From NCBI RefSeq assembly GCF_044324875.1, contig NZ_CP172185.1: a DNA stretch of 64,000 nt. One strand, 5' to 3'. The notes beneath the pieces are model-generated. The model searched no databases. It was not told where the DNA came from and worked only from the letters and a program-made list of their open reading frames with translations. Origin of the DNA: Escherichia coli. Its GTDB lineage: Bacteria; Pseudomonadota; Gammaproteobacteria; Enterobacterales; Enterobacteriaceae. A program made the translations under genes and the position numbers. Shown here piece after piece: positions 60,442 to 64,000 of this stretch (position 1 is the stretch's first letter; each line of letters opens with the position of its first letter).

Positions 60442-63400
60442 TTACCACTGAATACCGGCACCGAGTGCGGCGGAGTATTCACCCTGGCTATTGGTACTAC
60501 CTTGTAATTTGTAGACCCAACGACCATTGGCGCTCACCATCGACACACCTAAAGCAACAGCCGATTCACCATTGTAAGTACCGCCACCAATAGAGGCCAT
60601 GCTGGCACCTGGAGTGTAAGCCTGCGGCAGACCGGTCATTGCCATTGCAGAAGCGATACCACCGCTCAACTTGCTTTCGGTTTTGGACAGTTTGTTATCC
60701 ATCTCAACCATCCGCTGATCGGTGTATTGCTTCGTTTCCTGCACGCTTTGCTTCAACTGCGCATAGTTCACTGCGTCGTTGTTGTTGACGCCAGCAGAGA
60801 CGTTGCTGATGCGAGTCGTACCGCCATTACCACCACCGAGAGTGATGTTGCTGTAGTCTATAGAACCATCAGCTTTGGTGTCGTAACGAACGCCGCCTGC
60901 CTCAGAAGACTTCAGCTGCGAAACGTTAACCGCATCGGTGGCATTAACACCTGCAGCAACGTTGGTGATACGACGCTGGTTGGTAGAAGAACCCACAGAG
61001 ATGGTGTTTTCTTCGTTGGCCACGGAACCGGTACCCAGCGCGACGCTGTTGTCAGCGGCAGCAATGGAACCAGAACCAATTGCAACACTGTCTTTACCCT
61101 GCGCGTTGGCATCTACGCCATCGGTGTTGGTCTTGAAGTATTTGGTGCTACCGGTGGTTACGATATCGCCAATGCCGTTTTCGATATTGGTAACGCGAGT
61201 ATCCAGATTCGTCACCTGATTGTTCAGGTTAGTAATGCTCTGGGTATTCTGGGAAACCTGCGCGTCCGTTACTTTCAACTGACCCACGTTAACCGCATCG
61301 GTATCAGCCGAACCAGCCGCGACGTTGGTGATCTGACGTTGACCGTCTTCACTGCCGACAGAGAACTCACCCACAGAGTTCTGCGGTGCGTCCATGTTGT
61401 AGGCGGCGTAGCCAGTTTGAGCACCACGAGTCGTCTGTGAGCCATTACCCATAGCAATGCTGTTTGCATGGTTTGCACGCGCGTTGCTACCGATAGCAAT
61501 GCCATTAAGTGCATTCGCGTCCACGTAGGCACCATAACCGATACCAATACCCGCATTACCATTAACGATAGTTTTCGCGCCCATTGCTAGCGAGTCTTCA
61601 CCTACTGCCAGTGAATCTTCTTCCGTTGAGTTGGCGTGGAAGTATTTGGTCGGCGTGGTAGCGACTGCACCAATGGCATTTTGCAACTGGCGAACCGTAA
61701 CGGCGTCATGGGCTTCGGAACCATCGGCTACGTTGATGATTTGACGATATTTACCGTCATCACCAATAGACAACGCACCAAGTAGTTCGCCATCCGTGGT
61801 GTCATAACCAATCACAACACCTTCTTCCGACACGCTGGTGTCACGAGAACCTTTAACTATTACACGGCTGGAAACGGAACTGCTACCCAGGGCGATACCC
61901 GTATCAACGGAGCTGCTGCTACCTTGACCAATGGCTACGCTGCTTTCGCCTGAGGCGACAGCGTTATAACCCACAGCCGTAGCGCCAATACCTGAAGCGC
62001 TGGCATCGTTGAACGCTAAGCCGTTGTCGTTGGTACGTACATAGTTAATGTCCGCACCGTTATCTTCGATGTAGGTTTCGCTGGTGTTACCGGCAAGCTG
62101 ATTGATGATTTCGCTGTTCTGCTGGATCAGCATATTGGTGTTAAACAGCTGAGAACCGTTGATGGCGTCAGTGCTGCCTTCGCCAATGTTACCATCAGCA
62201 ACATTTGTGATGATGCTGGCCTTGCCGTCATGGCTGGCGTTGTAGGCACCTGCGCCGTCATTGGCTGTTGCATCCCACAGCAGAGCGTTATCGTCGAGCG
62301 CATCCAGGGCGTCACCGACGTTGTTGTACTCGGCATTTGCAATGGTGTAACTCGGCGCAGTGATAGTGCCATCAGCGTTGACTTCTGCGTCACCACCCAG
62401 CGCATCAGCGATGTACTTGTTGGTGGTATACAGTTGTGAACCGTTAATGGCATCGCTGCTGGTGGAGGAAATTGCACCGTTAGCGACGTTAGTGATTACA
62501 CTGGCTGTTTTATCTTTTCCGTGAGCGGCGCTAAATGCACCATTACCATCATTGGCTGTGGCATCCCACAGCAGGGCGTCATCCAGCGTGGTATCGATCG
62601 CTTCCAGCGCGTCACCGACGTTGCTGTAACTGCCGCCAGCGATGGCATAAGTCGGTGCGGTGATTGTGCCGTCAGCATTGACTTCTGCGTCACCACCCAG
62701 AGTATCGGCAATGTACTTGCTGGTGTCATAGAGCTGTGAGCCGTTAATAGCGTCGCTGCTGGTAGAGGAAATTGCACCGTCTGCAACATTAGTAATGATG
62801 CTGGCCGTGTTATCTTTTCCGCGACCGGCGCTAAACGCACCGTCACCGCCCTTGGCGGTCGCATCCCAGAGTAGGGCGTCACCCAGTGATGTGCTAAATG
62901 ACGTGTTAATGGCAGCCAGAGCATCACCGACGTTATTGTAGTCAGTACCACCAATAGTGTAGGTTGGCCCGGTTAATACACCCGCATCACTGATATCAGC
63001 ACCACCGCCAAGGTATGACGTAAATGAATCAGCTAAGCCATAAAGTTGTGAGCCATTAATGGCGTCAGTGCTATCAGAGGATACCGTGCCTGCCAGTAAG
63101 TTGGTGATTTTGCTGTCAGTACCGTTGGTGCCGTGTTTGGCACTGAATGCACCCGCCGTAGCGTTCCACAGCAGGGAATCGTCACCGAGACTGTCAACAG
63201 CGTCAGTCAGGTTGGTGATGTTGGTGGTGTTCGTGGCGATATTGGTGGTGTTGGTTGCCACGGCATCGTTAGTGGTTTTCAGCTGAGAGCCGTTTACCGC
63301 GTCAGTGCTGCCAGCCGTCAGGTCACCGTCTTTGACGTTGGTGATTTTGCTGGTGGCTTCGGTACCGTGCGCGGCGCTGAATGCACCCGCCGTAGCGTTC

Positions 63401-64000
63401 CACAGCAGGGAATCGTCACCGAGACTGTCAACAGCGTCAGTCAGGTTGGTGATGTTGGTGGTATTCGTGGCGATATTGGTGGTGTTGGCTGCTACGGCAT
63501 CGTTAGTGGTTTTCAGCTGAGAGCCGTTTACCGCGTCAGTGCTGCCAGCCGTCAGGTCACCGTCTTTGACGTTAGTGATTTTGCTGGTGGCATCAGTACC
63601 GTGCGCGGCACTGAATGCCCCCGCAGTAGCGTTCCACAGCAGTGAATCGTCACCGAGACTGTCAACAGCGTCAGTCAGGTTGGTGATGTTAGTGGTGTTC
63701 GTGGCGATATTGGTGGTGTTGGCTGCCACGGCATCGTTAGTGGTTTTGAGCTGAGAGCCGTTAACCGCGTCGGTGCTGCCAGCCGTCAGGTCACCGTCTT
63801 TGACGTTGGTGATTTTGCTGGTGGCATCAGTACCGTGCGCGGCACTGAACGCGGTGCCATTCCACAGCAGGGCATCGTCTTTAAGGTCGTCAACGGAATC
63901 CGTCAGGGTATTGATACTGTTAGTGTTGGTGGTGATATTGGCAGTATTGGTCGCTACGTTATCGTTGGTGGTTTTCAGCTGAGAACCGTTAACCGCATCC
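60442..64000 (-). CDS. trimeric autotransporter adhesin (YadA-like; UpaG/EhaG-type), 3' part only; gene continues beyond window end
   Basis: ORF track 60442-63729 begins at an internal GTG; same frame stays open with no stop from 63730 to 64000; C-terminal YadA-like membrane anchor (...[10 protein letters not shown]); Ser/Thr/Asn/Gly-rich head/stalk repeats; [19 protein letters not shown] motifs. Confidence 0.8.
63071..64000. repeat. near-identical tandem coding repeats, unit 234 bp (78 aa), at least 4 copies, truncated by window edge
   Basis: identical sequence blocks recur at 234-bp spacing (same motif at 63301, 63535 and 63769); protein repeat [76 protein letters not shown]. Confidence 0.75.

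Follow-up and report, generated by a model that had tools for sequence, protein, structure and literature searches.

A trimeric autotransporter adhesin gene at the UpaG/EhaG locus of Escherichia coli, with an in-frame array of short modules that varies in copy number between strains

The window analyzed in this work is a 64,000-nucleotide stretch of Escherichia coli DNA (contig NZ_CP172185.1 of RefSeq assembly GCF_044324875.1), one end of which carries, on the minus strand and next to lldP, the 3' part of a gene for a YadA-like adhesin. The minus-strand frame entering at 63999 is open over 1185 codons and closes at a TAA stop (60444-60442), giving a predicted protein that ends in GAGIQW; the remaining two minus-strand frames are full of stops. 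Since the frame is open up to the window edge, the gene extends past the window at its 5' end. The visible part is the 3' two-thirds of the gene, whose length would be about 1674 codons if the part outside the window resembles that of relatives. The G+C content of the gene is 52-55%, like that of the flanking core genes. A GTG at 63729 was rejected as a start codon, being only the product of a mechanical rule for calling open reading frames (ORFs). Four plus-strand ORFs (63133-63645, 63305-63520, 63539-63754 and 63773-63982) were also rejected as genes: they form a ladder that recurs at 234-bp steps, relatives have no annotated gene there, and we regard them as mirror-frame artefacts of repeated coding sequence. 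The features of the locus are listed below with the evidence for each.

60442..64000, minus strand: 3' part of the adhesin gene (1185 codons and stop); open frame, Pfam, identity to the proteins of strains SC418 and EBJ003, UpaG and EhaG
60445..60627, minus strand: YadA-type C-terminal membrane anchor, four beta-strands per chain, final W; PF03895, Hia anchor structures, UpaG match
60628..62283, minus strand: non-repetitive membrane-proximal passenger with the last DALL-neck, YLhead blocks, necks and coiled-coil stalk; Pfam, SadA fragments
62284..63174, minus strand: three long units of 300/300/291 bp (100/100/97 aa); LLW[ND] spacing, Tandem Repeats Finder (TRF)
63175..63870, minus strand: three short units of 228/234/234 bp (76/78/78 aa); TRF, unit identity
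63871..64000, minus strand: tail (43 codons) of a diverged leading 'TLQW'-type unit, cut by the window edge; 73% identity to the next unit
63213..63252, and likewise 63681-63720, minus strand: 21-bp duplication of one heptad (NIATNTT-type) inside a short unit; TRF
60389..60418, minus strand: terminator-like hairpin and T-run; pattern scan, a consensus match only
58490..60145, minus strand: lldP (L-lactate permease), the downstream neighbour; annotated lldP in all relatives

With high confidence we assign this region to the chromosomal trimeric autotransporter adhesin gene of E. coli, the positional orthologue of UpaG, EhaG and SadA, in which modules change in number in frame. The type Vc features are present, namely an aromatic-ended C-terminal YadA-like anchor and a passenger of head, neck and coiled-coil stalk. 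The Pfam YadA_anchor (PF03895) matches aa 1125-1185 with full model coverage (E 3.6e-19), YadA_stalk (neck/coiled-coil) is matched 14 times, and YadA_head is matched 3-5 times, at aa 668-694, 828-854 and 961-1005 together with stalk matches in the membrane-proximal passenger. Among solved structures, the top matches are fragments of Salmonella SadA, 2yo0 (E 6.5e-135, aa 768-1033) and 2yo3 (E 6.3e-91, aa 908-1111), with further SadA matches to 2ynz (aa 597-672) and to 2yo2/3zmf, the FGG fragment, which matches the first long unit at aa 255-328. These SadA entries are the reference examples of the DALL connectors (2ynz, 2yo3), the HANS connector (2yo3) and the FGG insert (2yo2), and the neck consensus is given as DAVNxxQL (PMC7247746). 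AtaA, BpaC, Hia and YadA follow SadA in the list of structural matches; those to SadA, AtaA, BpaC and YadA include passenger structures, and the Hia anchor structures 3emo, 2gr7 and 2gr8 and the YadA anchor match the C-terminus. The anchor sequence is identical to UpaG residues 1718-1778. Relatives 98.5-99% identical to the window protein start with MNKIFKVIWNPATGSYTV..., an N-terminal signal peptide region that falls outside the window. NCBIfam holds no UpaG or EhaG model, and its generic trimeric-adhesin models all scored below cut-off.

The gene neighbourhood points to the same assignment. A megablast search with 60000-64000 matched 5421 of 5426 complete E. coli genomes, with the annotation 'YadA-like family protein' and lldP. 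In SC418 and EBJ003 the gene order is mtlADR - yibT - yibL - DUF3251 lipoprotein - adhesin - lldPRD, and the part from yibL through DUF3251/SadB and the adhesin to lldPRD is common to SC418, EBJ003, CFT073 and O157 Sakai. In CFT073, upaG (1778 aa) is the annotated name of the gene flanked by lldP and by a DUF3251 (SadB-type) lipoprotein gene, and in Sakai the adhesin ECs_4480 (1588 aa, equal to EhaG) occupies the same position. The DUF3251/SadB-type gene lies upstream of the adhesin gene in all four genomes, 43 bp away in SC418, and the window lldP begins 297 bp past the adhesin stop, at 60145 on the same strand. EhaG and SadA are positional orthologues of UpaG (PMC7247748). In Salmonella, sadA is located between the mtl and lld operons and forms an operon with the lipoprotein gene sadB, and a 5-kb deletion in K-12 has removed the orthologues of both (PMC3953254). 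Among 60 evenly spaced genomes, 14 (K-12-like and others) matched the lldP flank only. Because such lldP-only genomes fall in the high-identity band, identity-band counts of the genome matches were set aside as a basis for allele frequencies.

Much of this had been anticipated by the preliminary description of this DNA, which claimed a minus-strand ORF truncated by the window, a YadA-like C-terminal anchor behind stalk and head repeats, a trimeric autotransporter adhesin and, upstream of lldP, the UpaG/EhaG locus; all four points hold. The alignment it asked for gives end-to-end identities across the 1185 aa of 87.4% to UpaG (CFT073) and 79.2% to EhaG (Sakai), compared with 99.1% for the SC418 and 98.5% for the EBJ003 protein. 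Over the last 600 aa, identity rises to 93.0% for UpaG and 91.8% for EhaG. Identity to CFT073 UpaG thus stays well short of near-identity (87%), and RefSeq gives its closest proteins the name 'YadA-like family protein' instead of UpaG. Judged by these comparisons, the allele is neither a CFT073-type UpaG nor an EhaG of the enterohaemorrhagic E. coli type, but belongs to a third, common lineage of one gene.

The repeats were put into register by the DALL motif LLW[ND], which occurs at aa 44, 120, 198, 276, 376, 476 and 573 of the partial protein, at spacings of 76, 78, 78, 100, 100 and 97 aa. Two families are thereby delimited, both far beyond chance. The short family was recovered by TRF at 63139-63996 (period 234, 3.7 copies, 90% matches, score 1324), and a repeat search returned four copies, three of 257 nt with 94-95% identity and one that is truncated, with 76%. 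In DALL-to-DALL register the short units occupy 63870-63643 (228 bp), 63642-63409 (234 bp) and 63408-63175 (234 bp). They are mutually 92-96% identical at the DNA level, and each consists of a DALL, a neck (ITNV...DAVNGSQL) and an Asn/Thr-rich coiled coil. Before these units come 43 codons (63999-63871) that belong to the end of a diverged leading unit and show 73% identity to the corresponding stretch of the unit that follows; in relatives this leading unit has 78 aa and opens with a 'TLQW' variant of the DALL motif. The long units (63174-62875, 62874-62575 and 62574-62284) have periods of 300/300/291 bp (TRF period 300, 80% matches), are 59-79% identical to one another and are made up of a DALL, a neck, a beta-insert and a short coiled coil. 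The insert is FGG-like, a label that comes from the SadA fragment matched by the first long unit (PMC7247746). Nested within the short array, TRF found a period of 21 (1.9 copies) at 63213-63252 and 63681-63720, a duplication of one heptad (NIATNTT / NITNLTD), which each short unit contains. Units of 69/71 aa in other strains differ from those of 76/78 aa by exactly this heptad.

With one 234-bp unit as query, matches were found in 963 of the 5426 genomes, at 1-8 per genome (median 4); all 3034 matches are chromosomal, none lies on a plasmid and every one falls inside the adhesin gene. Loci with variant counts were recounted by motif spacing in alleles with 96.8-99.8% identity to the window over the last 600 aa. 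Three short units were counted in EBJ003 (protein of 1673 aa) and WCHEC000837 (1675 aa), four in SC418 (1743 aa), five in strain 144 (1821 aa) and six in PCP07014 (1909 aa). These five near-identical alleles are all intact, their short arrays are always in frame, and the steps in length equal whole units (1821 - 1743 = 78; 1909 - 1675 = 3 x 78). Long units, on the other hand, number three in every allele examined. Over the species sample, the distance between the conserved flanks is about 5281-6230 bp.

The two families also differ in how their copies are related. Within a strain, the short units show 92-98% identity, as opposed to 72-87% between the window type and CFT073 (DNA). The relation is reversed in the long units, where orthologues are 87-100% and paralogues 59-80% identical. 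The greater likeness of short units within than between strains indicates concerted evolution, by unequal exchange or conversion, and the comparison confines this process to the short array. The long units are old, diverged and fixed at three copies. The earlier picture of the repeats therefore stands in part. Of the 'four nearly identical 234-bp units' described, three are near-identical; the fourth is diverged and runs off the window. The three diverged '291-bp' units placed at 62100-62990 are indeed three and diverged, but their periods are 300/300/291 bp and the coordinates were approximate and in another phase. The view of the repeats as hot spots of copy-number change applies to the 234-bp family, with 3-6 units in near-identical alleles, but not to the family of about 300 bp, which is constant at three.

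In other respects the window has its closest relative in SC418 (the 4-kb query is 99.7% identical over 3.9 kb aligned): at the DNA level, no difference separates the two in the three short units that they share or in the three long units. SC418 carries one further short unit of 207 bp (69 aa), at about 11930-12140 of the SC418 locus, against window position 63871; this looks like a recent gain or loss of a single unit. A 7-aa indel relative to SC418 in the first BLASTP alignment was discarded as an off-register artefact of this whole-unit difference. Window residues 1-43 correspond to residues 490-532 of both the EBJ003 and the SC418 proteins, and the correspondence with EBJ003 makes the window collinear with that strain.

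The extra unit of SC418 sits exactly where the window has none, and the junction would look alike after unequal crossover or after assembly collapse, which speaks for a reading in which a unit was collapsed out and the true gene is longer than the sequence; the preliminary description had called gene length and repeat count uncertain on account of assembly collapse. The same unit could equally be a real polymorphism. Moreover, the arrangement of the window (the diverged unit and then units of 76/78/78 aa) is collinear with both EBJ003 and WCHEC000837, and 600 complete genomes have a match of at least 95% identity to its last 201 bp, which extend into that diverged leading unit. In addition, 4-8% of positions distinguish one unit from another, and the exact repeats in the array reach 86 bp at most, below ordinary read length. 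The worry is reasonable in general but applies weakly here, and we consider mis-assembly of the array very unlikely. A similarly low probability is assigned to the reading that the gene is decaying or a pseudogene, with a disruption beyond the upstream end of what the window shows, comparable to the K-12 deletion. Such decay would be hidden in the 5' third of the gene, which is outside view, and could be entertained given the loss of the locus in K-12-like genomes (the 14 of 60 noted above) and an IS3-family element 4.5 kb away (54524-55957). Yet the frame stays open for 1185 codons in a row, intact proteins show 99.7-99.8% identity to the window protein over the last 600 aa, and each of the six relatives examined has an intact copy of full length. 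As for a different adhesin of the Eib/Saa type, borne on a mobile element and foreign to the UpaG/EhaG locus, the anchor and stalk motifs are common to all trimeric autotransporters, and Pfam alone cannot separate the types. This identity is nevertheless refuted, with next to no probability left to it, by the chromosomal position beside lldP at the UpaG locus, by the 87% identity to UpaG over 1185 aa and by the unit matches, chromosomal in 3034 of 3034 cases; the G+C content is host-like as well.

Several points count against the assignment to a working UpaG/EhaG-type adhesin whose modules change in number. Adhesion, trimerisation and secretion are attributed to the window protein by way of its homologues. 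The N-terminal ~490 codons, with the signal peptide and distal heads, lie outside the window together with the sadB-like gene and the promoter, and the window alone thus cannot vouch for the intactness or expression of this copy. Finally, the copy-number differences are contrasts between genomes, which do not distinguish unequal crossover from slippage and yield no rate.

Comparison with the named systems places the window allele closest to UpaG of uropathogenic CFT073 (c4424; WP_001033292.1, 1778 aa). The two share the locus (yibL - sadB-like - adhesin - lldP), the succession of a 71-78-aa DALL/neck/coiled-coil array, three units of ~97-100 aa, head/neck/stalk and anchor, and near-identity over the C-terminal ~170 aa. 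They differ in the short array, which in CFT073 has five units (76/78/78/71/71 aa), as opposed to three after the diverged leading unit in the window; the two 71-aa units lack exactly the duplicated heptad. At the DNA level, unit sequences of the two alleles are 74-86% identical. In addition, NCBI applies the upaG name to the CFT073 allele but not to the allele lineage of the window. EhaG of enterohaemorrhagic O157:H7 (Sakai ECs_4480) resembles the window in locus, anchor and three long units of ~96 aa, whereas a single DALL motif of the short-array type followed by a stretch of 262 aa replaces the tandem array, and its passenger is more divergent. SadA of Salmonella enterica (STM3691, with helper lipoprotein SadB) is the positional orthologue in the mtl-lld interval (PMC3953254, PMC7247748) and shares the DALL, neck, FGG and YLhead modules with the window protein (PMC7247746); it belongs to another species and has 1461 aa. 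The adhesin gene, its locus and its kinds of repeats are already known. What is mildly new is descriptive, namely that only the short array is dynamic and homogenised, that a heptad-level polymorphism is nested within it, and that the window and SC418 differ by one unit. A literature search on tandem repeats of UpaG returned nothing relevant, the original descriptions of UpaG and EhaG lying outside its reach.

Type Vc secretion is well understood and provides a framework for the product of the window gene. Three identical chains would be exported by Sec through an extended signal peptide, known here from the relatives, probably with the help of the upstream inner-membrane trimeric lipoprotein SadB; assistance of the adhesin by such a lipoprotein has been described (PMC3953254). 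The four C-terminal strands of each chain would then combine into one 12-stranded barrel, inserted by the beta-barrel assembly machinery (BAM). For UpaG, trimerisation of the barrel starts in the periplasm, and rapid export of the passenger follows once BAM has inserted the 12-stranded barrel; the UpaG homotrimer of the outer membrane is stable to sodium dodecyl sulphate and heat (PMC5670179). The emerging passenger is expected to fold into a trimeric coiled-coil fibre broken by DALL/neck connectors, FGG-type inserts and YadA-like heads. By analogy with related adhesins, known for binding of extracellular matrix, aggregation and biofilm formation (PMC7247748), this fibre may bind extracellular matrix and promote cell aggregation and biofilm.

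Within such a fibre the tandem repeats would correspond to whole structural modules, each 78-aa unit representing a DALL, a neck and about five Asn/Thr-rich heptads. We propose that unequal recombination adds and removes the 78-aa unit in frame, and that within the unit single heptads (21 bp) are inserted or deleted. Since the short unit is self-contained and the indels are whole heptads, changes in copy number would alter the length of the fibre and keep the register of the coiled coil. Scaled roughly from SadA, with a reported length of 108 nm for 1461 residues (PMC7247746), each short unit may contribute about 6 nm. A more speculative extension treats the 234-bp array and its internal heptad duplication as a length-tuning contingency locus, whose variation would be under selection and not a matter of neutral drift. 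Modules and heptads would often be gained and lost in frame, with homogenisation by gene conversion, and in each lineage this would set how far the heads project past O-antigen or capsule. The evidence that bears on it consists of the copy-number steps and the concerted evolution, and covers neither a link to surface polysaccharides nor fitness; we hold this proposal only tentatively and consider it rather doubtful.

UpaG/EhaG is a studied adhesin and a vaccine candidate, and the present results are mainly of use for correct annotation. Because the length of the gene differs between strains by whole 78-aa modules, gene length or the size of a polymerase chain reaction product is unreliable as a marker of identity. 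As only the short array is dynamic, the stable units of ~100 aa and the membrane-proximal third would make better targets for typing or as antigens. Short-read assemblies of longer arrays deserve a check.

Scans of the adhesin-lldP spacer for promoters and of 56000-64000 against Rfam found nothing. The hairpin at 60418-60389, located by pattern scan 24 nt past the adhesin stop, has a 13-pair stem with 6 G-C pairs followed by TTCTTT. On the minus strand, the spacer also contains a perfect palindrome at 60345-60359 (ATTGG-CCCTA-CCAAT) and, further downstream, a related sequence, AATTGGCAGTACCACTT, at 60218-60234. We take both to be similar to the pair of LldR operators at the lldPRD promoter.

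Elsewhere in the window, the IS3-family insertion sequence of ~1.4 kb (54524-55957; orfA 54567-55097, orfB 55202-55924; NCBIfam transpos_IS3, E 3.8e-89) lies between cysE and trmL, a site that is empty in SC418 and CFT073. The central part of the waa (lipopolysaccharide core) cluster, 34048-39374, has no megablast match to SC418, its flanks being ~98% identical, and presumably specifies another type of core oligosaccharide. Between rfaD and kbl (42295-43579), the window carries yibB/htrL (ORF 42535-43407; NCBIfam E 7e-165), which is present at this site in O157 Sakai and absent in SC418 and CFT073. At the far end, beside yicH, a seven-gene sugar cluster (188-7131) encodes a BglG/MgA-type regulator, fructose-type IIA and IIC components of a phosphotransferase system, two class II ketose-bisphosphate aldolases, a ROK kinase and a D-lyxose/D-mannose isomerase (cupin). 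In SC418 this place is taken by yicJ-yicI, and the window cluster is presumably the frz operon associated with extraintestinal pathogenic E. coli.

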